Shown in pieces: positions 1 to 57,323 of a DNA stretch of 64,000 nucleotides. Numbering within the stretch: position 1 is the stretch's first letter; the number at the start of each line of letters is the position of its first letter. The DNA comes from Dehalococcoidales bacterium (GTDB lineage: Bacteria; Chloroflexota; Dehalococcoidia; Dehalococcoidales; Fen-1064): assembly GCA_035529395.1 (NCBI GenBank), contig DATKWT010000091.1, forward strand, positions 135-64,134. The letters run 5' to 3'. The notes beneath the pieces were generated by a model that worked only from the letters and a program-made list of their open reading frames with translations, was not told the origin of the DNA and ran no database searches. The position numbers and the translations under genes were made by a program.

Positions 1-20
1 TCTGGGGGTGTCCCCCCAGA
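1..20. repeat. GC-rich hairpin at the window edge (8-bp stem TCTGGGGG/CCCCCAGA, 4-nt loop)
   Basis: Read directly from the sequence. It may extend beyond the window. Function unknown. Confidence 0.5.
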
Positions 21-31
21 TATAATCTTTC

Positions 32-55
32 CCCCCTTCCTGGCCAGGAAGGGGG
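32..55. repeat. Perfect 24-bp palindrome CCCCCTTCCTGG|CCAGGAAGGGGG
   Basis: Read directly from the sequence. It resembles in style the CTGG..CCAG-core hairpins at 13518-13550 and 21464-21484. Confidence 0.5.
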
Positions 56-360
56 ACAGGGGGATGGTCGAAAAGGTTTTTCATCATCCTGTTAGAGCCA
101 GTGTCATTGGCTAAATAACTATATATAGGAAGCACTACACTAGCTGGTATTTCTGCAATTGAGTATCACCTCTCGTTAGTAATAACTGCCTTCCAAGTAG
201 ACATAACTCTAAAAACAAATCACGCCTGGTTAGTCTCGAATTGTTTCTCCTATATTTTCTTTGTCTGGTTTATTGCCATTGAGGCTGTTTGTCACTAATG
301 TACTGGAAGAGTACAGGGTGATTGACAACAGGGCAGCCCCGAAAGTAACATGAAGTACGG

Positions 361-3983: not shown

Positions 3984-4454
3984 GTGGAAACGCAGTTGGT
4001 ACCGGCCGAGAGCAACACAGGTGGGAAACCGAATGCTCGCAGCACAGAACAGCGCAGGATAATCCTGAGAATTATTCAACAGGCCGGTGGACACCTTGAT
4101 GCGGATGATATCTACCGCCTGGCCCGGAAAGACTTGCCTGTCATCAGTTTGTCTACCGTGTACCGTACCCTGCAATTATTCCGGAAATTAGGGCTAATTG
4201 AAGAGCATCAGTTCAGTGACATGCGGCGGCGTTATGAAAGTGTGCCCCGCGCGAAGCATCATCACCTGGTATGCCTGGGCTGCGGTCGGGTGCTTGAGTT
4301 CAACTGCCCATCGACGGAGCGATTGAAATCCAGGATAAGCCGGCAAGAAGGATTCGAGGTTACTGACGCCGAAGTACGTCTCGAGGGCTACTGTCCCGAA
4401 TGTAGAAGTCGCCTATCGGATAGAATGATTGATACTGAACAGGGCAATAAATAG
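3984..4454 (+). CDS. Fur-family metalloregulator (paralogue 1)
   Basis: Winged-helix segment SLSTVYRTLQLFRKLGLI, HHHLVCLGCG and a C-terminal CPEC (structural Zn site). GTG start lies 5 nt after GGAGGT. Fur, Zur and PerR cannot be told apart from sequence alone. Confidence 0.85.
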   Translation: METQLVPAESNTGGKPNARSTEQRRIILRIIQQAGGHLDADDIYRLARKDLPVISLSTVYRTLQLFRKLGLIEEHQFSDMRRRYESVPRAKHHHLVCLGCGRVLEFNCPSTERLKSRISRQEGFEVTDAEVRLEGYCPECRSRLSDRMIDTEQGNK

Positions 4455-8994: not shown

Positions 8995-9999
8995 ATGGTA
9001 ACTGAGGAGCAAGTAAGAGAAAGCCTGGAGGGAGTGCTTGTACCCGCTATCAAACGCAGTATTATCAGGCTGAATCTGGTGCGTGAGGTAGCTATCACTG
9101 ACGGCAAAGTCAGGATTGTTCTGGCTTCGACGGGGCTGATTACGGGTGCTCAGGACTGGGTTAAGGACCAGGTTGTGGAGGTCGTGAAGAAGCTGCCCGA
9201 AGCTGGCGAAGTAGAAGTAGAATTTGTTGAGGCCACGCCGGCTGAGTTAAATGAGATTGGTCATGTTATTGCGATAATGAGTGGGAAGGGTGGTGTAGGC
9301 AAGTCGTTGATGGCCAGCCTTACTGCCATCTCACTGAGACGACTGGGCTATGAAGTAGGTATCCTGGATGCTGATATCACCGGCCCCAGTATACCCAGGA
9401 TGTTCGGCATCAATACCCGGCCTGGCGGTAACGAAAGTGGCATGTTACCGGTCCTGTCAAAATCAGAGATTGAAGTCATGTCCATCAACCTTCTTCTGCC
9501 CAGCGAGGACGACGCTGTTATCTGGCGTGGTCCACTTATCGGCAAGGCGATTACCCAGTTCTGGGAAGAAGTGCTCTGGGGCAAGCTTGATTACCTGATT
9601 ATCGACCTTCCACCGGGAACGGCCGACGCTCCTCTTACAGTGATGCAGACACTACCTATTTCCGGTGTAGTTATTGTTTTCACGCCTCAGGACCTGACCG
9701 CAATGGTTGTCAGAAAAGCCGTAAACATGGCGCAGAAAATGGAGAAGCCAATCCTGGGAGTAGTCGAGAACATGGCCTATCTATATGTCCCTGAGATAGA
9801 TAAGAAGATTGAGCTGTTCGGTAGCAGCCAGGGGGAGGAGATGGCCCGGGTATCCAATGCACCGTTCCTGGGACAGTTGCCCATAGACCCGGAACTGGCA
9901 AAGCTATGTGACGAGGGGAATGTTGAGCGATATAGTGCCGAGTTAGTAGATAACCTGGGTAAGTCTCTTTCCGAGGCGACATCAGGCGATAAAGCATAA
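8995..9999 (+). CDS. Mrp/NBP35/ApbC-family Fe-S cluster carrier ATPase with an N-terminal DUF59-like domain
   Basis: The N-terminal ~85 aa are MIP18/DUF59-like, followed by [21 protein letters not shown] and IIDLPPGT. Confidence 0.85.
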   Translation: MVTEEQVRESLEGVLVPAIKRSIIRLNLVREVAITDGKVRIVLASTGLITGAQDWVKDQVVEVVKKLPEAGEVEVEFVEATPAELNEIGHVIAIMSGKGGVGKSLMASLTAISLRRLGYEVGILDADITGPSIPRMFGINTRPGGNESGMLPVLSKSEIEVMSINLLLPSEDDAVIWRGPLIGKAITQFWEEVLWGKLDYLIIDLPPGTADAPLTVMQTLPISGVVIVFTPQDLTAMVVRKAVNMAQKMEKPILGVVENMAYLYVPEIDKKIELFGSSQGEEMARVSNAPFLGQLPIDPELAKLCDEGNVERYSAELVDNLGKSLSEATSGDKA

Positions 10000-10015
10000 G
10001 TCAGGAGGTTGTGCT

Positions 10016-10465
10016 GTGGCTGTATCACGGGAAAAGCTCGAAGAACTGCTCAAGCAGGAGATGAGGAAGATTTACTCCGAGACAGTTATCGACCACAGCA
10101 TGCACCCGAGAAACACCGGTAATCCTGGTGACGCCGACGGTTATGCGAAAGTAACCGGTCCCTGTGGCGATACCATGGAAATGTGGCTCAAAGTAAAAGA
10201 TGACATAATCCGTGATGCCAGTTTCATGACCGATGGTTGTAGCACAACCATTGCTGCCAGCAGCATGGTTACCGAGATGGCGAAAGGCAGGACTGCGGGC
10301 GAGGCCCAGAGGATTAGCCAGCGGGATATCCTGGATGCTCTGGGTGGGTTACCTGAGGACGGCGAGCACTGTGCCCTTCTTGCCTCAGATACGCTGAAGG
10401 AAGCGATAAGGGACTACCTCGCCATGAAAAGAGAGCCGTGGAAGAAGGGCTACCGGCAACACTAG
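10016..10465 (+). CDS. IscU/NifU-N-type Fe-S scaffold protein
   Basis: Three scaffold Cys in context (GPCGD, DGCSTTIA, HCALLA). GTG start lies 7 nt after AGGAGG. Confidence 0.85.
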   Translation: MAVSREKLEELLKQEMRKIYSETVIDHSMHPRNTGNPGDADGYAKVTGPCGDTMEMWLKVKDDIIRDASFMTDGCSTTIAASSMVTEMAKGRTAGEAQRISQRDILDALGGLPEDGEHCALLASDTLKEAIRDYLAMKREPWKKGYRQH

Positions 10466-10485
10466 CTGAGCAATAGTATAATCCG

Positions 10486-10541
10486 GACTCTCCAGGTCAG
10501 TATACCGGGAACTCATCGGACTGGCATGGAGGGTCTTTTTT
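10486..10541 (+). terminator. Rho-independent terminator candidate after the IscU gene
   Basis: Imperfect 16-nt arms GACTCTCCAGGTCAGT / ACTGGCATGGAGGGTC (3 mismatches) followed by TTTTTT. Confidence 0.5.
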
Positions 10542-10684
10542 CTATCATCACCCTGTCTACTCCCGCTGGACAACATCCAACTCAGAACCCGCGCTTGATT
10601 AAACTTTCTGTATCTGCTATCCGTGGGTGTTCAGTGCTATCTGAAGCGTGTGACGTGGTATTATACCCCGATTTATAGCAGGAA

Positions 10685-10713
10685 TTGACATAGCTATACG
10701 GGTTGTTTATAAT
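10685..10713 (+). promoter_or_regulatory. Consensus sigma-70 promoter (TTGACA-17 nt-TATAAT) upstream of Fur paralogue 2
   Basis: Both hexamers match consensus exactly with a 17-nt spacer, 36 nt upstream of the ATG at 10749. Confidence 0.7.
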
Positions 10714-10748
10714 AGTAGTTGGGAATGAGACGCATTAGCGATACTTAA

Positions 10749-11174
10749 ATGACTACAAAGAGCATTCGTAGAGAACTGAACGTACCGGGACTGAGAGCTA
10801 CTAACCAGCGGCTTCTGGTGATGCAGATAATACAACATGGGCAAGGGCACCTGGATGCTGATGAAATCTATCGTCGGGCCCGAGAGAAAAACCCCCGCCT
10901 CAGCCTGTCCACCGTTTATCGTACCCTGCAAACTCTTAAGAAATATGGTTTGATAGAGGAGCTTCATCTTGATGAGGGGCATCACCATTATGAGAAGCGG
11001 ACTGCCCAGCACCACCACCTGGTCTGTCTCGGGTGTGGCAGGGTCGTTGAATTCCGGTACCCGTTAGCCAGCCTGATAAAGAAGAATGTCAGAGAAGCCA
11101 GAGAATTTAATATTACCAGTAGCGAAATCAGAATGACGGGCTATTGCCCGAAGTGTCGTCAAGAGAGGGAATAG
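10749..11174 (+). CDS. Fur-family metalloregulator (paralogue 2)
   Basis: SLSTVYRTLQTLKKYGLI, HHHLVCLGCG and a C-terminal CPKC. It lies immediately upstream of feoAB. Confidence 0.85.
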   Translation: MTTKSIRRELNVPGLRATNQRLLVMQIIQHGQGHLDADEIYRRAREKNPRLSLSTVYRTLQTLKKYGLIEELHLDEGHHHYEKRTAQHHHLVCLGCGRVVEFRYPLASLIKKNVREAREFNITSSEIRMTGYCPKCRQERE

Positions 11175-11249
11175 CGTACGGGCAAGCTCTTTGTGACACA
11201 GTGTATTTTTACTCGGAACTATAAAGGCTGGGTGTAACCAGAGAAATGG

Positions 11250-11582
11250 ATGCGGTACATGTTCAGATTCGGGGGCAGGTTCAGACATGGATTTCAGGGC
11301 AGGTTCAAACGTGGATTTGGGTGGGGTGAAGGGCAACTAACTCTAGCGCGAATGCAGACCGGGCAGAGCGGCATAGTGGTCCAGGTACTGTCCGGACATG
11401 GTGTGATTAAGCGTCTTGGTGCTCTGGGACTCAGACCTGGGCTGAGAGTTACCAAGGTTAATTCTTCATTCATGCGGGGACCGGTAACGGTACAGTTCGG
11501 TAATACCCAGGTAGCTATTGGCTTCGGCATGGCCAGCAGGATAGTGGTGGAACCGATAGAATCCCGGAATGAAAGGCCATAG
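11250..11582 (+). CDS. feoA: FeoA-domain protein with an Arg/Gly/Phe-rich N-terminal extension
   Basis: FeoA SH3-like core (LA.M..GQ.G.VV.V....G...RL.ALGLRPG..V.......GP....FG...VAIG...A..I.V). The ~29-aa N-terminus is MRYMFRFGGRFRHGFQGRFKRGFGWGEG. Confidence 0.75.
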   Translation: MRYMFRFGGRFRHGFQGRFKRGFGWGEGQLTLARMQTGQSGIVVQVLSGHGVIKRLGALGLRPGLRVTKVNSSFMRGPVTVQFGNTQVAIGFGMASRIVVEPIESRNERP

Positions 11583-13329
11583 CGTGGTGACCAGCAACAG
11601 CAGCAAGAGCACTGGCATCAAGAGAGTGCTGCTGATGGGTAACCCCAATGTGGGCAAGAGTGTCATTTTCTCCCGTCTGACTGGCACCCGGGTGATTGCT
11701 TCTAATTATCCGGGCACCACGGTAGGCTACAGCCAGGGGTTCATGAACCTGGGGGAAGACAGGGTCGAGGTTATTGATGTACCCGGTACCTATACGCTGG
11801 AACCAACCAGCGAGGCTGAAGAAATAGCCTCCGAGATGCTCAACACCGGAGACTTAATCATAAATGTGGTTGACGCTACCAATCTGGAGAGAAATCTTTA
11901 TCTGACTCAGCAATTATTGGAACGGGACATACCGCTAGTAGTGGCGCTCAATATCTGGGATGAGACCGAACATCGAGGAATACATATTGAGCTGGATAAG
12001 CTGAGGGAACGCCTGGGGGTGCCGGTTATTCCCACCGTGGCGGTAAGCGGTCAGGGGATAAAGGAACTCGTTACCAGTATTGTCAGCGCAACTTCACCTG
12101 ATACTCCTGCCCGCAGCTATGATGAGCGCTGGGCTACTATTGGCGGTATTATCAGCCAGGTCCAGCGCATTACTCATCGACATCATACCTGGCGGGAGCA
12201 CCTCGGGGATGCCAGCGTGCAGCCATTAGCCGGTGGCATCATAGCCTTAGTTGTTCTTGCCGTTGCCTTTCTGGTAGTCCGCTTCATCGGGGAAAACCTC
12301 ATCGGTTATGTGCTTGAGCCCCTGTTCGACACTCTGTGGGCGCCGGTGGTATTGAGGTTAAGTGACATCCTCGGCGGTTCGGGATTTTTCCATGATATCC
12401 TGATTGGTAAGATTGTTGGTGGCGAAGTCAACTTTGTTGAATCATTTGGCTTGTTGACCACCGGGCTCTTTGTCCCCTTTGGCATGGTGTTGCCTTACAT
12501 AATATCTTTCTATCTGGTGCTGGGCATGTTCGAGGATACAGGTTACCTGCCGCGGCTGGCAGTTCTGATGGATACCCTGATGCACCGTCTGGGCTTGCAC
12601 GGCTATGCAATCATTCCGAGTATGCTGGGTCTGGGCTGCAATGTACCGGCTGTTCTGGCCACCCGCATCCTGGAGAGCAAGAGGGAGAGATTCATTGCGG
12701 CAACATTGATATCTATTGCCATACCCTGTGCTGCCCTGCAAGCAATGATATTCGGCCTGGTGGGGGAGCAGGGGGCGCAGTATGTGGCCATTGTCTTCGG
12801 GACACTGTTCGTAGTCTGGATTATTCTGGGAGTAATAATAAACCGCTTCGCCAGAGGATTCAGCCCCGAGTTGCTGATAGAGATACCACCCTATCGTATG
12901 CCACCGTGGCGGACCGTATTGCAGAAGCTGTGGATGAGGGTCAACGGTTTCCTGAAAGAGGCTATCCCCATAATCCTGGGTGCTGTGCTGGTAATAAATA
13001 TACTCTATACTTTGGGGATATTTGATGCTATCGCTGATTTTGCATCACCTGTGGTAACCGGTCTCCTGGGACTACCCAAGGAGGCTGTAACGGCCCTGGT
13101 TATCGGTTTCCTGCGTAAAGATGTAGCCCTGGGCATGCTCGCTCCCCTGGGAATGAGTGCCAACCAGCTGGTCGTTGGTAGCGTTGTCCTGGCCATGTTC
13201 TTCCCCTGCGTGGCTACATTTGTAGTTCTTCTGAGAGAGCTCGGGGTTGTCAATATGCTCAAATCGGTGGCAATAATGATTGCCACCGCATTACTGGTGG
13301 GAGGGGCACTAAACCTGATTCTGCAGTAG
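11569..13329 (+). CDS. feoB: Ferrous iron transporter FeoB
   Basis: The N-terminal G-domain has GNPNVGKS and DVPGTY, followed by a polytopic membrane domain. It overlaps feoA by 14 nt. Confidence 0.9.
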   Translation: MKGHSVVTSNSSKSTGIKRVLLMGNPNVGKSVIFSRLTGTRVIASNYPGTTVGYSQGFMNLGEDRVEVIDVPGTYTLEPTSEAEEIASEMLNTGDLIINVVDATNLERNLYLTQQLLERDIPLVVALNIWDETEHRGIHIELDKLRERLGVPVIPTVAVSGQGIKELVTSIVSATSPDTPARSYDERWATIGGIISQVQRITHRHHTWREHLGDASVQPLAGGIIALVVLAVAFLVVRFIGENLIGYVLEPLFDTLWAPVVLRLSDILGGSGFFHDILIGKIVGGEVNFVESFGLLTTGLFVPFGMVLPYIISFYLVLGMFEDTGYLPRLAVLMDTLMHRLGLHGYAIIPSMLGLGCNVPAVLATRILESKRERFIAATLISIAIPCAALQAMIFGLVGEQGAQYVAIVFGTLFVVWIILGVIINRFARGFSPELLIEIPPYRMPPWRTVLQKLWMRVNGFLKEAIPIILGAVLVINILYTLGIFDAIADFASPVVTGLLGLPKEAVTALVIGFLRKDVALGMLAPLGMSANQLVVGSVVLAMFFPCVATFVVLLRELGVVNMLKSVAIMIATALLVGGALNLILQ

Positions 13330-13517
13330 CCACAACCTGCTGCAAGGGTTGGTGACATCAGTATCTGATATAAGGTCCACGGAGAGCGGGGATGTCCAAT
13401 CCCCCACAAGTTTCTACCTTAATCAGGAAAAGGAAACCACCCCGAATAAAGCCCTGGTGCTCTCGTTCCAATAGAAGGCTGACACAACTCCCTGCATGGA
13501 GGGGAACTTTTCTTCTT

Positions 13518-13550
13518 GTGTGGGAAGCTGGCAAAGCCAGCTTCCCACAC
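13518..13550. repeat. Perfect hairpin with a 15-bp stem: GTGTGGGAAGCTGGC-AAA-GCCAGCTTCCCACAC
   Basis: Read directly from the sequence. It shares the 13-nt core CTGGCAAAGCCAG with a hairpin inside MITE-like copy A (21464-21484). Confidence 0.6.
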
Positions 13551-13564
13551 ATATAGATATCGCC

Positions 13565-13585
13565 CCTTTCTCCAGAGGAGAAAGG
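13565..13585. repeat. Perfect 9-bp hairpin CCTTTCTCC-AGA-GGAGAAAGG
   Basis: Read directly from the sequence, within the 468-bp feoB/13798 intergenic region. Confidence 0.5.
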
Positions 13586-13657
13586 CGTAAGGGGAGTGAG
13601 GCATTGCCCCACGAGGAGGCCGCCAGTCCCATAGTTAACCGTACAGGTACTCTCCGG

Positions 13658-13710
13658 TGGCAACCAGCGTCGGTTGTACTGGAGTGTCACTTATGTCCTG
13701 GACACCGCAC
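13658..13710 (+). repeat. Conserved ~52-nt non-coding element, copy 1 (family 2)
   Basis: About 77% identical, with one gap, to 56695-56746. Shared blocks are TGGCA.CCAGC, TGGAGTGTCAC and ATGTCCTG. It lies 10 nt upstream of a TTGACA at 13720-13725. Confidence 0.6.
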
Positions 13711-13797
13711 AACAACCGTTTGACATTCATCACGGCTAAATGCTAGCCTACCTTGGTTTTCCCCGTAGAATAGAAGGTATGTATCAGGAGGTTTACA

Positions 13798-14832
13798 ATG
13801 TGGGACGAATCAAAATGTGACCTGTGTGGTGATTGCCTGGTGAAGTGCCGTTATACCGATTATGACAAAGATAAAGCCGTATCTGAAATCAAGCTGCTCA
13901 TGGAGGGCAAAGACGCCGAGATACTGCACACGTGTATCACCTGTATCGCCTGTAATGATTACTGCCCAACCGGGGCCGACCCTTCAAACCTTATCTTCAA
14001 GATGCAGGAAAAGATAGGTACCTGTCCTCTAGTAGTTTCAATGAAACCAAATCTGGATAGAATTGCCCAGGGACTTGAGGGAAAGGGAGAGACCGGCGAA
14101 CTGATACCGGGCGACTCTGATAGACCTGTCCTGTCACTCGATTCCTTCGGTTTACGGTTGATACCCGATGGTACCCTCGACAGCCAGATATTCAAGGGTA
14201 TGACTGTGGTCAGGGGCGGTGAGTATATGTCTCTCGTCGGCTGTGTGCACTTTGGTGGCGAGAGCTTTGTTGAGCGGTATGCCCGGAGCGTCATCGACAA
14301 GCTGGCTAGTTTGGGCAAGGATATCGTCTACTTTCACAATGAGGGCTTTGCCCTGGTACACGTCCGGGCCAGGGAGCGCGGCATCATCGCTCCCTTCAAA
14401 TACATGCACCTCTTCGAGTACCTGCGCAACTACCTGAGAGAGCACCAGGGTAGCATCACCAGGCTCGGTAAGAAGGTTGCCTACCAGGCCAATTGCGCCA
14501 CCCGGTACGTGCCGGAGCAGGATGCCTTCCTTGACGAGGTCTTGGAGTTAATTGGTGTAGAGAGGCCGACAAGGCAATACGAGCGATTGGATGCGCTTTG
14601 TTGCGCCGGACCGATTATGGCTGCCAATAACAAGCTGGCGATTGATATCCAGGAGAAAAATATCAGGGATGCTATCGATTGTGGTGCTGATGCCATGATA
14701 ACCTCCTGCCCTATGTGTGATTTAGTGTTACAGCAGCCTACATCACAGCATAGTCTACCCAAGATACCTATCTCTGAACTATGCCGTATGGCCCTGGGTG
14801 AGAAGCCGTTCCCCGAATCGACCCCGGCCTGA
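13798..14832 (+). CDS. (Fe-S)-binding oxidoreductase, HdrD/GlpC-like, with a CCG-type cysteine motif
   Basis: N-terminal ferredoxin-like CDLCGDCLVKC and CITCIACNDYCP. The C-terminal motif is C-x34-CC-x34-C-x2-C (NCATRY...LCCAGP...SCPMC). Confidence 0.75.
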   Translation: MWDESKCDLCGDCLVKCRYTDYDKDKAVSEIKLLMEGKDAEILHTCITCIACNDYCPTGADPSNLIFKMQEKIGTCPLVVSMKPNLDRIAQGLEGKGETGELIPGDSDRPVLSLDSFGLRLIPDGTLDSQIFKGMTVVRGGEYMSLVGCVHFGGESFVERYARSVIDKLASLGKDIVYFHNEGFALVHVRARERGIIAPFKYMHLFEYLRNYLREHQGSITRLGKKVAYQANCATRYVPEQDAFLDEVLELIGVERPTRQYERLDALCCAGPIMAANNKLAIDIQEKNIRDAIDCGADAMITSCPMCDLVLQQPTSQHSLPKIPISELCRMALGEKPFPESTPA

Positions 14833-14919
14833 GTGTAGAAGGATATCAGGAGTATCCGGCGTCCTCCGCTACCATGATAACCGGAACCTGATGTCGGGAA
14901 GACCTTCCGGAGGTTAAAT

Positions 14920-16848
14920 ATGTCTCAAGAATTCAAGCATCTTTTTTCACCCATCAAGCTGGGGCCGATGACAGTACGCAATAGAATAGTCTCATCTTCC
15001 CACGCCACCAATTTCCACTCAGTGGTCGGCCCTATCACCGATAGGGCGTTCCATTACTATTTATCCAAGGCGAAGGGTGGGTTGGGGCTCATCGTGACCC
15101 AGTTCACTGTACCTATGGCGCTTCAGAGTGATGCTGCGATCCCCACCTATAGGAATCTAGCCGACGCCATTCACCAGGAGGGTACGAAGCTGATGGTGCA
15201 GCTGGTGCTCCCCGGGAAGTTTGGGAGTTCAGATACATATGGGGGAACGCTTTCATCTTCATCGCCAATACCAGCCACGACTCCCTACAGGGGTACGGGG
15301 GAAGTGCCTCGCCAGATGGAAATCGAGGAGATAAAGGAGGCAGTCCAGGGATTTGCTGATGCCGCCAGGAGGGCATGTGAAGCCGGTCTTGACGGCGTGG
15401 AAATAAGTCTTGCCGTCGGTTTCCTGTTCTCCCAGTTTATATCGCCTGTCTTTAATCAGAGAACCGACGAATACGGTGGCAGCCTGGAGAATCGACTCCG
15501 TTTTCCTATCGAGACCATCGATGCCGTCAGAGATGCTGTCGGGAAGGACTTCGTTGTTGGTATCAGGTTGACCGGGGACGAGTTTCTCGAGGGTGGCATT
15601 GACCTGGAACTGGCCAAACTGAATGCCCAGAGATTAGAGGCCACCGGGAAGCTGGACTACATCAGTATCTGTGCCGGCACTTTCTTTAATCCGGAAGCAC
15701 ATATTCCTCCCATGTATTTTCCTCTGGGATGTTTTGTTTACCTTGCTGCTGCCATTAAGGAGGCGGTGAATCTACCGGTGATGACGGTGGGTAGAATAAA
15801 TGATCCGGTGCAGGCGGAGAAAATCCTGGCGGACAATCAGGCAGACCTGATAATCATGAATCGGGCTACTATCTGCGACCCGGAAATGCCAAAGAAGGTC
15901 CAGGAGGGCAGGCTTGATGAAATACGTAAGTGTACCGGCTGTAACGAAGGTTGTCTCGGCAGGTGGGTCCAGGGTCTTCCCATAACCTGTGCCTATAATC
16001 CTGAGGTGGGTCGGGAGAGTGAGTTTGCCATAACGGAGGCACCCGTCAAGAAAAAGGTAATGGTCATCGGTGGGGGTGCCGCCGGTCTGGAGACAGCCCG
16101 GGTGGCTGCGTTGAGGGGTCACCAGGTATCCCTGTACGAAAAGGGAAGCGAATTGGGTGGGCAACTGAATATAGCGGTCAAAGCCCCGATGAGGGATGAT
16201 TTCCTCGAGGTACCTCGTTACTATACGCACCAGATGAAGCTTCTGGGAGTGGACGTCAACCTTGAAACCGAGGTAACTTCGGAAATGGTTGAGTCAATAA
16301 GTCCGGATGCCGTGGTGGTGGCAACGGGTTCCCTGCCCTATCTAACAACAATACCAGGTGTTGAGGGAGCCAATGTTGTCGAGGTGCGCGAGTTGCTTCA
16401 GGAGAAGGTAGAGGCGGGGCAAAACGTGGTCGTTATTGCCGGAGAACAGCATATCCAGGCGTTGAGTGCGGCTGATTTCCTGGCGGAGCAGGGGAAGACG
16501 GTAGAGCTACTGACTGATGGGCTCTATCCCGGTGCGTTGCTCGACCCGGCGACGCTAATGGTTGTATTGCCCAGACTGCTGGCCAGGGGGGTTAAGATAA
16601 CCCCCAGCACTGGAGTGAAAGAGATAACAGAAAACGCAGTAGTTGTCTTCAATGCTTTCACCAGGGAGGAGAGAAGAATCGAGGGTGTCGATACGATGGT
16701 AATTGCCACCGCTGGCAGGGCCGACGACAGGCTCTATCGTGCTCTAAAGGGCAAAGTGCAGGAGCTGCACGCGGTTGGTCACTGTATATCGCCACGCAAG
16801 ATGATTACCTCGGTTCTCGATGGAGCTATGGTGGGACGGATGCTGTAG
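14920..16848 (+). CDS. NADH:flavin oxidoreductase of the 2,4-dienoyl-CoA reductase / enoate reductase family
   Basis: An OYE-like N-terminal half, the 4Fe-4S motif CTGCNEGC..(11)..C, then VMVIGGGAAGLE (GxGxxG) and a second dinucleotide-binding fold. Confidence 0.85.
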   Translation: MSQEFKHLFSPIKLGPMTVRNRIVSSSHATNFHSVVGPITDRAFHYYLSKAKGGLGLIVTQFTVPMALQSDAAIPTYRNLADAIHQEGTKLMVQLVLPGKFGSSDTYGGTLSSSSPIPATTPYRGTGEVPRQMEIEEIKEAVQGFADAARRACEAGLDGVEISLAVGFLFSQFISPVFNQRTDEYGGSLENRLRFPIETIDAVRDAVGKDFVVGIRLTGDEFLEGGIDLELAKLNAQRLEATGKLDYISICAGTFFNPEAHIPPMYFPLGCFVYLAAAIKEAVNLPVMTVGRINDPVQAEKILADNQADLIIMNRATICDPEMPKKVQEGRLDEIRKCTGCNEGCLGRWVQGLPITCAYNPEVGRESEFAITEAPVKKKVMVIGGGAAGLETARVAALRGHQVSLYEKGSELGGQLNIAVKAPMRDDFLEVPRYYTHQMKLLGVDVNLETEVTSEMVESISPDAVVVATGSLPYLTTIPGVEGANVVEVRELLQEKVEAGQNVVVIAGEQHIQALSAADFLAEQGKTVELLTDGLYPGALLDPATLMVVLPRLLARGVKITPSTGVKEITENAVVVFNAFTREERRIEGVDTMVIATAGRADDRLYRALKGKVQELHAVGHCISPRKMITSVLDGAMVGRML

Positions 16849-20120: not shown

Positions 20121-21407
20121 ATGCCTGGACTGCCGCTGGAAGGACTGCGGGTACTTGACCTCTCCATGTGGTTTGCCGGACCCATGGGCAGCCGGTTGCT
20201 GGCCGACATGGGGGCTGAGGTAATCAAGATAGAATCGCTGGGACACATCGACCCGTGGCGAGGGCCTGCCAGGGTTACACCAATACTTATTGAGCGGATG
20301 CCGGAGTTGGCATCCGTTGAAAAGCCGTACAATCGTTCGGCCGGCTTCAACCTGCAGAACCGGAACAAGTATGGAATCACACTCGACCTTCGTACCGGGC
20401 GGGGCAAAGAGGTGTTCATGAAGCTGGTTGAAGTCAGTGACGTTGTCCTGGAGAACTATAGCCCCAGGGTCATGGATAGCCTGGATATTGATTACCCGGT
20501 ACTCACTGAAATCAACCCCCGGCTCATTATGATGTCATTGCCGGCCCTGGGCAGGACCGGCCCGGACAGGGACCATATTGCCTTCGGGCAGACGATAGAC
20601 TGCATGAGCGGTATGGCGTATCTCACCGGTTATCCTGGTGAAGAGCCGATGTTGCAGAGCGGGCTGTCCTACGGCGACCCACTGTCCGGGATGAACGCCG
20701 CTTTTGCTGTACTGTCAGCCCTGCACTACCGCCGGCGTACGGGCCGGGGAATGCATATTGACCTCTCACAGGTAGAAGGTCTTATCTCGTTCAACGCGGA
20801 TTCCGTGATGGACTACACGATGAACGGACGGGTACGTGAGCGAATGGGAAACCGCCATCCCTCGATGGCGCCCCACGGCTGCTATCGCTGCCGGGGTGAA
20901 GATAACTGGGTGGTGATTGCCGTCTCTTCAGACGCAGTCTGGGAGCGGTTCTGTCAGGCGCTGGAGCAGCCGCCCTGGACAGAGGATACCCGGTTCTCAA
21001 ACCTGCCGGGCAGGTACCGCCACCAGGATGAGCTGGACAGGCTGATAGAGGTCTGGACTGTGCAGCATGACCACTACGATGTAATGCGCATCCTGCAGCG
21101 GGCAGACGTCCCCGCTGGGCCGGTGCTCAACGCCAGGGAACTGACCGAGGAGCCGCATCTAAACGAACGGGGCATCTTTGAAACAGTCACCCACCCCGAA
21201 GCGGGCACGCATCCCTATATCGGCATGTACGCCCGGTTCTCAAAGACACCGGGGAGTATAAGGATGCCCGCTCCGTGCCTCGGTGAGCACAACCGCTATG
21301 TTTTCGGGGAAATACTCGGCATGTCTGAGGAGGGGATTTCGGAGCTGGAAGAGCTCGGTATAATCGGCACCGAAGCCCTGCCGGAGCAACAGGGGGGCAT
21401 GTTTTAG
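20121..21407 (+). CDS. Family III (CaiB/BaiF) CoA-transferase, paralogue 2
   Basis: LEGLRVLDLSMWFAGPMGSRLLADMGAEVIKIE. ATG lies 8 nt after GGAGGG. Confidence 0.85.
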   Translation: MPGLPLEGLRVLDLSMWFAGPMGSRLLADMGAEVIKIESLGHIDPWRGPARVTPILIERMPELASVEKPYNRSAGFNLQNRNKYGITLDLRTGRGKEVFMKLVEVSDVVLENYSPRVMDSLDIDYPVLTEINPRLIMMSLPALGRTGPDRDHIAFGQTIDCMSGMAYLTGYPGEEPMLQSGLSYGDPLSGMNAAFAVLSALHYRRRTGRGMHIDLSQVEGLISFNADSVMDYTMNGRVRERMGNRHPSMAPHGCYRCRGEDNWVVIAVSSDAVWERFCQALEQPPWTEDTRFSNLPGRYRHQDELDRLIEVWTVQHDHYDVMRILQRADVPAGPVLNARELTEEPHLNERGIFETVTHPEAGTHPYIGMYARFSKTPGSIRMPAPCLGEHNRYVFGEILGMSEEGISELEELGIIGTEALPEQQGGMF

Positions 21408-21609
21408 TACCTGGTTGCAGAAATACCTAGTATGTTCCGCGGGGTGAGACCCTTCGGCTTCGGCCTGCTGGCAAAGCCAGCAGGTAAGTTCAGGGTGACA
21501 CGCCGTTGGCATGTCATTCTTGAGCAACACGCCGTTGGCTTCAGTGGCACGCCACTCGCCTCAGTGGCGCAGAATCTGAATGTTGCGCGGATTTGTGCAA
21601 CCAGGTACT
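21406..21609. mobile_element. MITE-like non-coding repeat, copy A (204 bp)
   Basis: 19-bp terminal inverted repeats AGTACCTGGTTGCAGAAAT / ATTTGTGCAACCAGGTACT with 1 mismatch. Both ends are homologous to copy B at 26925-27055. It carries extra internal segments, including the hairpin at 21464-21484. The left TIR supplies the AG of the upstream TAG stop. Confidence 0.7.
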
Positions 21610-25693: not shown

Positions 25694-26926
25694 ATGAAGA
25701 GACTGACCCTTGACCAGTGGGAGAAGAAGTATATTGCCGGTACGGTCGAGAGGTTTGACCAGAAGTATCAGATGTTCAACAGGCCGGCCTGGGACCCGGA
25801 GATGAAAGAGTTGCTGGAGGACTGGTCATTCGGTGGCGAAGCCAGGGAGAGACCGGGCTATACTTTGCTTGACCACGCACTGAAACGGGCGAGCTCACGC
25901 ATCACACAGCTAGCGGTGTTCAATATGTACAAGCCCAACCCCAGCCCGGTGACAATGGCAATAACGGCGGCGATGGCAGGTGCATACTCGCGTCGTCAAC
26001 CCATGCCGGAGAAACCTCGTGAGAGGATGAAGATTGATGTCAGTGACTCGGAGGTACTGACGCGTAATGTGAAGAAAGTGGCCCGGTACTTTGGAGCCGA
26101 CCTGGTGGGTGTCTGCCGGCTGGACCGGCGGTTCGTGTATTCACACACCTACGGAGGGAACACATTTGAGGGTGCGCGTGAGTCTGAAGTGGACGCAGAC
26201 GGATCCCGGCCGCAGGAAATACCCGGTGAGTTTCAGTACGCCATAGTCATGGGATTCGAGATGGATTACGACCTCATGAAGTACTTCCCGACCTATGTTG
26301 CCGAAACCACTACGGCAATGGGTTACAGCAGGATGGCCATTGCCAATGCCCACCTGTCCGCCTTCATTCGGGGGCTGGGGTTCAAGACCATTGACTGTAG
26401 CATCAATGATGTTGCCCTTTCGGTACCACTGGCAATGCAGGCAGGGCTGGGTGACATCGGACGGAACGGGATACTGATTACACCACAGTTCGGGCCTCGC
26501 CTGAGGTTGAGCAAGGTGTTTACTGACCTGCCGCTGATTGTCGATACGCCGGTTGATTTCGGGGTCACCGAATTCTGTAAAGCCTGTATGAAGTGTGCCG
26601 AGATGTGTCCATCACAGGCCATTTCCACCGGGGAGAGGACCTCCGAGCCAAACAACGTGTCCAACGTGACTGGTGAAATGAAGTGGTCGATTGACCCTGT
26701 CAAATGCCGTATGCACTGGGGGCGTACGGATAAGTCATGCACCATCTGCGTTGCCTGCTGCCCCTACAATAAGCCGGATACCCTGTTCCACCGGGCGGTC
26801 CTGCGTCTTACCGACTACCTGAGGTGGACGGATTCTCTCTGTGTCCGGATGGACAAATTGCTCGGTTACGGCAGACCGGCCCGGGTAGCGGACTTCTGGG
26901 AGGAGTGGCAGCCCCGGCGGCACTAG
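25694..26926 (+). CDS. Reductive dehalogenase homologue (RdhA-like) without a TAT signal
   Basis: The C-terminal motifs are DLPL..D.PVDFG..EFCKACMKCAEMCPSQAI and W..DP.KC..(9)..CTICVACCPYNKP, the two RdhA Fe-S motifs. The N-terminus MKRLTLDQWEKKY has no RRxFxK. No rdhB-like ORF is adjacent. Confidence 0.85.
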   Translation: MKRLTLDQWEKKYIAGTVERFDQKYQMFNRPAWDPEMKELLEDWSFGGEARERPGYTLLDHALKRASSRITQLAVFNMYKPNPSPVTMAITAAMAGAYSRRQPMPEKPRERMKIDVSDSEVLTRNVKKVARYFGADLVGVCRLDRRFVYSHTYGGNTFEGARESEVDADGSRPQEIPGEFQYAIVMGFEMDYDLMKYFPTYVAETTTAMGYSRMAIANAHLSAFIRGLGFKTIDCSINDVALSVPLAMQAGLGDIGRNGILITPQFGPRLRLSKVFTDLPLIVDTPVDFGVTEFCKACMKCAEMCPSQAISTGERTSEPNNVSNVTGEMKWSIDPVKCRMHWGRTDKSCTICVACCPYNKPDTLFHRAVLRLTDYLRWTDSLCVRMDKLLGYGRPARVADFWEEWQPRRH

Positions 26927-27055
26927 TACTCAGTTGCAGAAACACCATGTAGTATGTTCCGTGGGGTGAGACCCTTCTCTACACTCAGGGTGACGTGCCA
27001 CTAGCCTCAGTGACGCAGAATCTGAATGTTGTGCGGATTTGTGCAACTAGATACC
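26925..27055. mobile_element. MITE-like non-coding repeat, copy B (131 bp)
   Basis: Its left ~60 nt and right ~70 nt are homologous to copy A. It begins in the TAG stop of the RdhA homologue and ends 10 nt from the fabD stop on the opposite strand. Its TIRs are more degenerate (13/18). Confidence 0.7.
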
Positions 27056-56228: not shown

Positions 56229-56319
56229 CTATATCGTATACTAGCACAACAAAGCTGAGTCCTTCACAGGGGAAGCACTCAGCCCTGACGAAGCCTCATA
56301 TCAGCTAGCTTCCACATTT

Positions 56320-56348
56320 AGTATAGCCCACGCGATAGACCAAGTCAA
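56320..56348 (-). promoter_or_regulatory. Promoter TTGACT-17 nt-TATACT of the WL operon
   Basis: Read on the minus strand. It gives a ~85-nt leader containing a hairpin at 56254-56283 (GCTGAGT...ACTCAGC with an inner CTTC/GAAG). Confidence 0.6.
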
Positions 56349-56694
56349 ACTCCACGGGAACCCGGCTACGCTGGTACGTACCCTGCAGGCTACCGGAAAA
56401 CGTACCTGGAGCAACCGGGTGCTTATTGTCTTTATATAAGGTACCGGGTTCACCAATATCAGGCCGAATAGATTGTAATATCTTTGAACGAGGATGTCAA
56501 TCCACTGTACTGGCATTGTAGTGTACGGAATGTATCTGAACTAGCTCATCCACCGGATGGCTTAACGGTTGGCAGGCGTTCCATGTTGAGGTTCGAGCTC
56601 TCGTTCAGGCAGATAGGTGACACAACAGAGTAAGGTGTTGTGGTCACTACCCAACGGCCTATTCCTGCAGAAAAAGGGAAGATTTCTTCTTTTA

Positions 56695-56746
56695 TGGCAG
56701 CCAGCATTGACTGTATTGGAGTGTCACAATGTCCTGAATACCGACA
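56695..56746 (+). repeat. Conserved ~52-nt non-coding element, copy 2 (family 2)
   Basis: See 13658-13710. It lies 17 nt upstream of the mraZ -35 hexamer. Confidence 0.6.
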
Positions 56747-56763
56747 TTTCTATGAAAAGGGTC

Positions 56764-56816
56764 TTGACAAATGGAGAAAAGTGTGGCAAAATGGCGTGAA
56801 TTGGTGAATTGTGGGA
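56764..56816 (+). promoter_or_regulatory. mraZ promoter (TTGACA-17 nt-CAAAAT) with three TGGnn direct repeats at 10-bp phase
   Basis: TGGCG (56792), TGGTG (56802) and TGGGA (56812) start at the -10 and TSS. The arrangement resembles the MraZ operator (TGGGN repeats, 10-bp periodicity) described in E. coli. Confidence 0.55.
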
Positions 56817-56897
56817 AGAATCGTAGATACTGACCAGGACAACAGGCGGTATGAACAGAAGTTCTGTTGCCACTGATTGAACCATAGAGGTACCTTG

Positions 56898-57323
56898 ATG
56901 TTTCTTGGTGAGTTCGAATACAGGATTGACGAAAAGGGCAGGGTGCCCATTCCACCCAGGTTCCGTAAGGACCTGGTAGAGGGAGTGGTACTGAAGCCCG
57001 GGCTCGACACGTGTATTGCTGGTTACGGACTGGCAGAGTGGGCGAAAGAGGCGGAGAGAATCGCCTCTGCTACCATGTCCGCCAGCAAGCGGAGAAGACT
57101 GGGCCGGGCTATGTTCGCCACTGCCTACAACCTTACTCTGGATGGACAGGGCAGGATATCCCTGCCACCTGCCCTGCGGCAGTATGCTCAGGTCGGTGAT
57201 GAACTCATTGTTATCGGAGTCAATACGCACTTCGAACTCTGGAACAAGGAGCTATGGGAGGCAGAGAGGACTCTCAGCCTGGAGCAATCCTGGCAGATAA
57301 TGGAGGGTCTGGAGGAACATTGA
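56898..57323 (+). CDS. mraZ: Transcriptional regulator MraZ
   Basis: [23 protein letters not shown] plus a second SpoVT/AbrB repeat [13 protein letters not shown]. Confidence 0.9.

Follow-up and report, generated by a model that had tools for sequence, protein, structure and literature searches.

An element that occurs twice in a 64,000-nucleotide stretch of DNA from a Dehalococcoidales bacterium (the whole stretch analysed here, called the window) belongs to a larger repeat. We think that this repeat is probably, with a probability of about 0.6, a low-copy and decaying MITE-like insertion unit of about 115 nt that landed upstream of two existing -35 boxes in one Dehalococcoidales lineage. 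The unit is discrete, collinear and modular, it carries nested insertions, and it is absent from the orthologous promoters. The block found upstream of mraZ and of an hdrD-like operon should not be annotated as a shared regulatory site in this Dehalococcoidales lineage. What it marks are two promoter-proximal points of insertion or rearrangement.

The element that was noticed originally, designated here as module B, is 52 to 54 nt long and is found in the plus strand at positions 13658-13711 (copy 1, B1) and 56695-56746 (copy 2, B2). The original prediction described two copies of about 52 nt with about 77% identity, and both the places and the degree of similarity were borne out by local alignment, in which 43 of the 54 aligned columns were identical (79.6%) and the remainder were accounted for by nine substitutions and two one-base indels. 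The end of copy 1, however, had been placed at 13710, and the aligned string really reaches 13711. The blocks TGGAGTGTCAC and ATGTCCTG are written with the same letters in both copies, and the longest identical run, 11 bases, is by our own estimate at the chance level for 54 nt at about 80% identity. When the 64 kb were searched with a degenerate consensus built on the 5'-terminal 33 nt of B, allowing up to three mismatches, exactly two sites were returned, while none was expected according to 100 dinucleotide shuffles. B1 and B2 do not differ with a 3-nt periodicity, and the open reading frames that cross the unit have no Pfam match. Direct reading of B did not reveal an internal repetition of two units, and its 5' half has no second core.

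The genes around the two copies, as identified by Pfam, are unrelated. Copy 1 follows the FeoB gene, which ends at 13329, and precedes the genes for a CCG-domain Fe-S protein (13798-14832) and an Oxidored_FMN/Pyr_redox enzyme. Copy 2 has the genes for a CooC-type ATPase and FTHFS upstream, on the minus strand, and those for MraZ and RsmH downstream. With respect to the start codons, B1 occupies positions -140 to -87 and B2 positions -203 to -152. The core promoters are outside the repeat at both loci. The predicted promoter of the hdrD-like/enoate-reductase operon (13720-13749, plus strand) consists of TTGACA, an 18-nt spacer and TGCTAGCCT, and it is kept in the orthologous locus L022 (TTGACATTCGTC...TGCTAGGCT). 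The predicted mraZ promoter (56764-56792, plus strand) consists of TTGACA, a 17-nt spacer and CAAAAT with an upstream TG, and it is kept in the orthologous loci L003, L008 and L011. A divergent promoter-like site on the cooC/fhs side (TTGACA, 17 nt, TACAAT; 56472-56500, minus strand) is located at the left limit of the lineage-specific segment described below, within a stretch orthologous to L029. The distance from B to the -35 box is 8 nt in copy 1, where 10 nt had been reported (TTGACA at 13720-13725), and 17 nt in copy 2, in agreement with the earlier value (mraZ TTGACA at 56764-56769), so that the two copies differ by 9 nt. The eight bases between the end of B1 and the -35 box, ACAACCGT (13712-13719, plus strand), are within the segment that is missing in L022 according to a composite alignment. 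An exact-protein look-up of the hdrD-like and RsmH open reading frames found no record for either. The homologs of MraZ assign the window to Dehalococcoidales, and one metagenome contig, L001, shares 99.9% identity with positions 4920-26848 of the window.

The repeat extends beyond B. It consists of three collinear parts, A followed by M followed by B, which have the same order and orientation at both loci and add up to a common core of about 115 nt; the full unit, including the nested insertions, spans 150 to 260 nt. Module A is the left end of the unit. In copy 1 it has the sequence GCTCTCGTTC-N11-TGACACAAC (13459-13488, plus strand) and its match in copy 2 is located at 56597-56626 (plus strand). 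The score of the alignment between the two A modules was reached by none of 300 shuffles when B was masked, and there is no third A site in the window. Block A had been missed in the earlier inspection of this DNA. Module M of copy 1, CCTGCATGGAGGGGAACTTTTCTTCTT (13491-13517, plus strand), is a terminator-like hairpin followed by a T-run, and a terminator scan located its stem at 13489-13504 with the T-run after it. The corresponding sequence in copy 2 is CCTGCAGAAAAAGGGAAGATTTCTTCTT (56664-56691, plus strand). The similarity between the two M modules (CCTGCA..GGGAA.TTTCTTCTT) had a score reached by 24 of 2000 shuffles. It includes TTTCTTCTT (13509-13517 and 56683-56691), the short similarity that had been pointed out on the 5' side of both B copies; that similarity is real, but it is located 140 nt 5' of copy 1 rather than about 135 nt.

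Both copies have acquired insertions of their own. In copy 1, a hairpin-rich insert of 140 nt (13518-13657, plus strand) separates M from B, where copy 2 has just the three nucleotides TTA. The collinearity of A, M and B, together with an M-B gap of 3 nt in copy 2 versus 140 nt in copy 1, supports the earlier suggestion that copy 1 was split by insertion of a hairpin-rich segment. The insert includes two perfect palindromes, one at 13517-13551 (16 bp, loop AAA) and the other at 13565-13585 (9 bp, loop AGA), and its predicted fold has a z value of -6. A 15-mer core at the tip of the larger palindrome (GCTGGCAAAGCCAGC) recurs at 21467-21481, inside a stretch that is missing from the paralogous copy of another two-copy repeat. 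In copy 2, a stretch of 37 nt between A and M (56627-56663, plus strand) provides the 3' arm (TGTTGTGGTCAC) of a hairpin, the other arm of which is the end of module A. Each of the strong hairpins belongs to an insertion found in one copy only. Nested copy-specific insertions such as these are found in decaying intergenic repeats.

Comparison of copy 1 with its orthologs indicated the limits of the unit at the feoB-hdrD-like locus. Module B is present in L024 and L028 (99.5% identity), L027 (95.7%) and L020 (90%). The homology with L020 starts at 13645, inside the copy-1 insert, and the sequences further upstream are unrelated. L022, an ortholog with 82% identity, keeps the promoter (TTGACATTC...TGCTAGGCT) and is missing A, M and B. 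Upstream of its -35 box, L022 has approximately 47 nt of homology to positions 13411-13458 of the window (33 of 47 identical), and the window without positions 13459-13719 aligns unbroken with L022 (...GTTTCTACC..AAAGCCyT followed by TTGACATTC). The left edge of this indel is located 1 to 4 nt before the first base of A. P0001, which represents an intermediate lineage, was left out of the comparison because its contig stops short of the promoter.

Copy 2 is located in a lineage-specific segment of 234 nt (56515-56748, plus strand) between the divergent cooC and mraZ promoters. On the mraZ side, homology to L003 (92% at the nucleotide level) begins at 56749, which is 2 nt past the end of B, and on the cooC side homology to L029 (93%) stops at 56514. 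The gene upstream of mraZ is trmD in L003, L008 and L011, and the gene upstream of cooC codes for a thioredoxin in L029 to L032. L003 (92% at the nucleotide level), L008 (about 80%) and L011 (about 76%) have the mraZ -35 and -10 boxes and the downstream GTG-rich boxes in common with the window, and the element is absent from all three; identities of 92%, 82% and 68% were also noted for the relatives with these mraZ promoters. The 234-nt segment was found only in the closest relatives, L023 and L033 to L035, with 97 to 99.8% identity. Judging from these alignments, the cooC and mraZ promoters that flank the segment are ancestral. The 82 nt to the left of A (56515-56596) have no explanation, and this locus is not a clean insertion. 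When both loci are considered, the edges of the unit are insertion or rearrangement edges at three of the four ends, as expected for a discrete DNA unit introduced at these places and not for a slowly diverging promoter region shared by the two loci.

Module B changes at about the neutral rate. In the comparison with L020, B1 differs at 7 of 54 positions and the third codon positions differ by 18.6%, while the adjacent promoter and 5' untranslated region (13712-13797) has no difference in 86 positions. In the comparison with L033, three substitutions and one indel were counted over the 52 nt of B2, versus differences of 1.3 to 1.7% in the promoter regions on its flanks and of about 1.5 to 7.4% at third codon positions. 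In L020 the core of B is GTGCTAC instead of GTGTCAC; in L033 an additional A is inserted between the two paralog-identical blocks of B2; and the terminal CA of B2 is TA in L033 to L035 (ACA to ATA). B1 and B2 have diverged by substitution at 9 of 52 positions (17%), as much as the third codon positions have diverged from the sister lineage (16-19%). A single duplication or transposition close to that split, with drift afterwards, would fit this value. Module A plus the spacer of copy 2 had no change in 98 positions with respect to L033, where about 4 to 5 were expected, in a partition that was picked after seeing the data and that involves small numbers; the same regions of copy 1 compared with L027 had 1 change in 30 and 7 in 169 positions, with no such deficit. 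The former result could hint at constraint and was given little weight.

These observations suggest a sequence of events in which the A-M-B unit would have entered two intergenic sites, each just upstream of an existing -35 box, and then would have gained nested palindromic insertions, come to sit at or near rearrangement edges and decayed neutrally. The unit may have been moved in trans by a transposase that recognizes a GTGTCAC-N1-2-ATGTCCTG core, present in B and, in inverted and degraded form, in A. The promoter-adjacent position would then result from the tolerance of insertions at that place in a compact genome. Today the unit would not act as a sequence-specific regulator; the most that may be expected of it is termination of feoB transcripts by the hairpin and T-run of the copy-1 M module.

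A lead towards the putative transposase came from the B core. The 19-base pattern TGGAGTGTCAC-N1-2-ATGTCCTG had seven matching stretches in 596 Gb of genomes, a number to be compared with about nine expected by chance. All seven were found in Actinomycetota, several of them near contig ends, and they fall within subterminal repeats of insertion sequences that are IS481-like and measure about 1.45 kb. The matched elements have GTCACCGATGTCCTG two to three times per end, in inverted orientation and finishing in ...ACA, and one of them is multi-copy on a Mycolicibacterium plasmid. Their transposase, with rve and HTH domains, is closest to the IS481 family (NCBIfam E-value 2.8e-62, with a score under the curated cut-off). 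The repeat described here resembles the IS481-family-like ends from Kribbella, Nocardioides, Branchiibius, Microbacterium, Corynebacterium and Mycolicibacterium in that the B core, TGGAGTGTCAC-NN-ATGTCCTG, is their subterminal repeat unit, located some 10 nt from a terminus with the final letters ...ACA and found also inverted near the other one. However, those ends belong to another phylum and have two to three tandem units with a period of about 25 nt, versus one unit in B; furthermore, the similarity outside the search pattern is not significant and no transposase is found near the repeats. Alignments of the left end of the 234-nt filler segment and of the B tail with the actinobacterial ends had scores reached by 35 to 820 of 2000 shuffles, which is not significant. 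The best B-tail result (35 of 2000) had only 6 aligned bases and did not end at the terminus, the end-anchored tail alignment was at 121 of 2000, and nhmmer aligned only about 22 nt of B with the ends. A tblastn search of the window with the actinobacterial transposase did not detect a transposase, the best E-value being 0.03 at a place away from the repeats. The IS481 match is a lead only, not an established relation, and could be a chance match.

The ends of the unit were also compared with each other. Module A of copy 2 contains an inverted and imperfect B core (GTTCAGGCAGATAGGTGACAC versus the reverse complement of GTGTCACTTATGTCCTGGAC). In end-restricted tests, the similarity of A2 to the reverse complement of B1 was reached by 16 of 3000 shuffles and that to the reverse complement of B2 by 80 of 3000, marginal values, the better of which becomes weaker after correction for four tests; the inverted relation of A1 to either B end was not significant in the same kind of test, and neither were the results of earlier and broader terminal-repeat scans. 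A search for a target-site duplication found no convincing direct repeat at either copy, the best candidate being GGT/CGT at copy 1; decay could have erased a duplication. Some other resemblances were examined and discarded. Terminal repeats seen by eye at the ends of the 234-nt filler, TGTACGGAAT...ATACCGACA, which would have made it a MITE by itself, were matched by 744 of 2000 shuffles. A third 'ACCGNACA' end at 13637-13645, considered as a degenerate tandem copy of B, was not significant. The likeness of the 5' half of B to the end of a repeat at 21.6 kb (GCAACCAG..GTACTGGAG) was outside the top Smith-Waterman matches and was treated as chance. A 22-nt motif at 4153, 10909 and 56366 was dropped as a shared intergenic motif, since two of the three sites are inside paralogous Fur-family genes.

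The number of secure copies is two. A relaxed B pattern found in JGI metagenome contigs only orthologs of the same two loci plus two matches with unrelated flanks. Profiles of A, B and the whole core were used with nhmmer in about 280 kb of fetched sequence and detected nothing further. Viral contigs had no match to module A and three matches to the B core, the flanks of which were unrelated, and a plasmid collection had no match to the 234-nt filler. A weak candidate for a third copy, strongly decayed, is located in the window at 256-315 (plus strand; TTTCTTTGTCTGG...TGTCACTAATGTACTGGAAGAGTACA), upstream of a TTGACA and of a MacB/FtsX-type gene. Its Smith-Waterman score was reached by 4 of 150 shuffles window-wide and by 2 of 500 in its own intergenic region, while neither the nhmmer profile of the unit nor the B core by itself was significant there. 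No conclusion was drawn from this candidate.

A history that does not require mobility is the main rival to this account and is rather unlikely. The repeat would then be filler DNA, duplicated a single time and without transposition machinery. When the cooC and mraZ loci were brought together, template switching or break repair could have used part of the feoB-hdrD spacer, or of a source common to both, as the template for the new junction. That there are only two secure copies, that copy 2 is exactly at a rearrangement junction accompanied by 82 nt of extra sequence, and that no target-site duplication, transposase or solid terminal repeats were found are all as such a history would have it, and the B1-B2 divergence is compatible with one event dating from roughly the rearrangement itself. 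It accommodates less well the hdrD locus, where the insertion is clean and the flanks are contiguous in L022, with a left edge no more than 4 nt from the edge of the paralogous similarity; this coincidence is unexpected for a one-off copy. The marginal inverted symmetry between A and B and the match of the B core to a transposase-binding repeat also argue for an insertion unit rather than a filler.

A functional role for B at the promoters was weighed against the same data. It is very unlikely that B is a cis-regulatory site that places the hdrD-like and mraZ/dcw operons, and perhaps an ABC transporter, under a common activator or nucleoid-associated protein. Such a site would explain why both copies are found 8 to 17 nt from a consensus TTGACA, why TGGAGTGTCAC and ATGTCCTG are the same in both, and why a weak third look-alike, TGTCACTAATGTACTGGA, is also upstream of a TTGACA. 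However, the element is missing from the orthologous promoters L003, L008, L011 and L022, although the -35/-10 core and the operator-like boxes are kept; drift is nearly neutral even inside the core, in L020 and in L033, whereas the next 86 nt are invariant; and copy 2 has about 6 to 7 nt more than copy 1 between the B core and the -35 box, a shift that puts the copies on different helix faces. In addition, the 11-base identical run is about what chance would produce, there are no other sites in the 64 kb, and the eight occurrences of GTGTCAC/GTGACAC in the window are at the chance level. The absence from orthologous promoters, the near-neutral drift and the varying spacing thus leave the binding site proposed originally without support. 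B is similar to class I activator sites and UP-like elements in being directly upstream of a sigma-70-type -35 box, and differs from them in its lack of conservation with the promoter, its variable phasing, its neutral drift and its size, 52 nt versus sites of 16 to 22 nt. The other function that had been suggested, a small structured or antisense RNA, is extremely unlikely, be it as a structured RNA or as a transcribed sense or antisense module. The surrounding spacers do include strong hairpins and the terminator-like M block, but the strong hairpins are specific to each copy and B itself is no more stable than shuffled sequences when either strand is folded (z from -0.04 to +1.0), its two copies have unlike predicted structures and no covariation was seen. 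Small stems can be drawn in copy 1, but L027, L020 and copy 2 have sequence changes that disrupt them. Rfam searches of both spacers had no match at gathering thresholds, where only a tRNA-His gene was found, and nothing credible in E-value mode; promoter and terminator scans did not find a promoter-like site reading through B.

As an insertion unit, the repeat can be compared with known classes of small mobile or dispersed DNA. It is short (less than about 500 bp), non-coding and without an open reading frame, and its presence or absence between relatives has sharp edges, features that are those of MITEs. It shares with MITEs and small intergenic repeats (Correia elements, ERIC, RUP, BOX, REPIN) a non-coding core of about 115 nt in an intergenic and promoter-adjacent location, a modular A-M-B structure with variable inner content, as in BOX elements, the presence/absence polymorphism between close relatives, a possible, imperfect inverted symmetry of the ends and the association with rearrangement junctions. 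In contrast to those families, which have tens to hundreds of copies, there are two, possibly three, copies here, and these are already about 20% diverged and drifting; the target-site duplication is not readable, the terminal inverted repeats are marginal, and no cognate autonomous element was identified. The pair also recalls the 'putative mobile promoters' of Matus-Garcia, Nijveen and van Passel (2012), defined by at least 80% identity over at least 50 nt located between -150 and -50 of the start codon, upstream of non-paralogous genes (commentary PMC3575422). As in that class, two similar sequences of at least 50 nt are found in one genome upstream of non-homologous genes, and they belong to no Rfam family or annotated insertion sequence. 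Nevertheless, the 79.6% identity and the location of copy 2 at -203 to -152 just miss the definition, and the shared block does not include the -35 and -10 boxes, which are ancestral at both loci, so that no promoter moved.

A more elaborate version of the insertion reading can be conceived, in which A-M-B would be an undescribed Dehalococcoidales MITE family with an IS481-like transposase that recognizes GTGTCAC-N-ATGTCCTG and prefers the upstream edges of -35 boxes. Its insertion would deliver M as a terminator or insulator, uncoupling promoters from upstream read-through, and would seed rearrangements at promoter edges. We consider it quite unlikely that all of this holds. The link to an IS481-like transposase is not established by the present evidence; if it were confirmed, the repeat would be an example of small mobile DNA from a group whose genomes are very compact. 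The general significance is small: the class, small dispersed intergenic repeats, is familiar, and the unit would be a new member of it. At the dcw cluster the unit accompanies one clear change of synteny, from trmD-mraZ to cooC-mraZ.

A second intergenic repeat is also present in two copies in the window, at 21405-21608 and 26924-27054. The shared blocks are 84-96% identical, and both copies begin at the stop codon of a gene on the + strand. The copy at 21405-21608 carries additional internal segments relative to the one at 26924-27054, and one of these segments is a hairpin, CCTGCTGGC-AAA-GCCAGCAGG, located at 21464-21484. This hairpin shares its core 15-mer, base for base, with the 16-bp palindrome at 13517-13551, which is part of the insert found only in copy 1 of the A-M-B element. 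The common core suggests that this genome has received small palindromic (REP-like) insertions.

A comparison of positions 9667-16699 with L027, the relative that is 95.7% identical over the copy-1 region, showed mosaic divergence. At third codon positions, feoB and the hdrD-like gene differ by about 3% and the adjacent enoate-reductase gene by 19%, a jump that points to a recombination tract boundary near 14.9 kb. At copy 2, the segment comprising module A and the spacer (56597-56694) has 0 substitutions in 98 nt with respect to L033, one of the closest relatives, against roughly 4-5 predicted from the third-position rate; this count involves small numbers and a partition selected after the data had been seen. 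A deficit of this kind was absent in copy 1.

The surroundings of mraZ (56229-56898) were compared with the mraZ loci (L003, L008, L011) and cooC loci (L029-L032) of relatives and with the closest relatives (L033-L035), and they include a change in the synteny of the dcw cluster. In the first two sets of loci, mraZ is preceded by trmD-rplS-priA and cooC by a thioredoxin gene; in the lineage of the window, mraZ is divergent from cooC/fhs. GTG-rich boxes, AAAGTGTGGCAAAATGGCGTGAATTGGTGAATTGTGGG, spaced by about 10 nt (56784-56830), coincide in part with the -10 region of the mraZ promoter and in part with the sequence that follows this promoter. These boxes, conserved in relatives with as little as 68% MraZ identity, are probably the MraZ operator.

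The actinobacterial loci that match the B core of the element (L013, 4130-5585; L014, 640-3050; L015-L019) are insertion sequences of about 1.45 kb from Actinomycetota that encode an IS481-like rve/HTH transposase. Each end has 2-3 subterminal GTCACCGATGTCCTG repeats, in inverted orientation between ends, and several of these elements adjoin contig ends. In each of three independent assemblies the sequence breaks off 5' of the MacB/FtsX-type gene, at a distance of 230-830 nt. The spacer in this location (window 1-360; L039, 1-830; L040; L041) is strain-variable and hairpin-rich. Window positions 1-70, which include a perfect C/G-rich palindrome (32-55), differ in sequence from the corresponding stretch of L039, where the end of an HNH-like ORF lies upstream of the spacer.

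A 22-nt direct-repeat family detected by the repeat finder was accounted for by the similarity of two paralogous Fur-family genes (4089-4301 and 10840-11060), and the copy at 56366, the third of the family, is apparently a chance occurrence. The exact 23-mer TGGAGTGTGACAGATGTCCTGGA, common to the unrelated metagenome contigs L025 (1538-1560) and L026 (192-214), which have different flanks, bears no relation to the A-M-B element and may represent a Shine-Dalgarno sequence with its start codon context.
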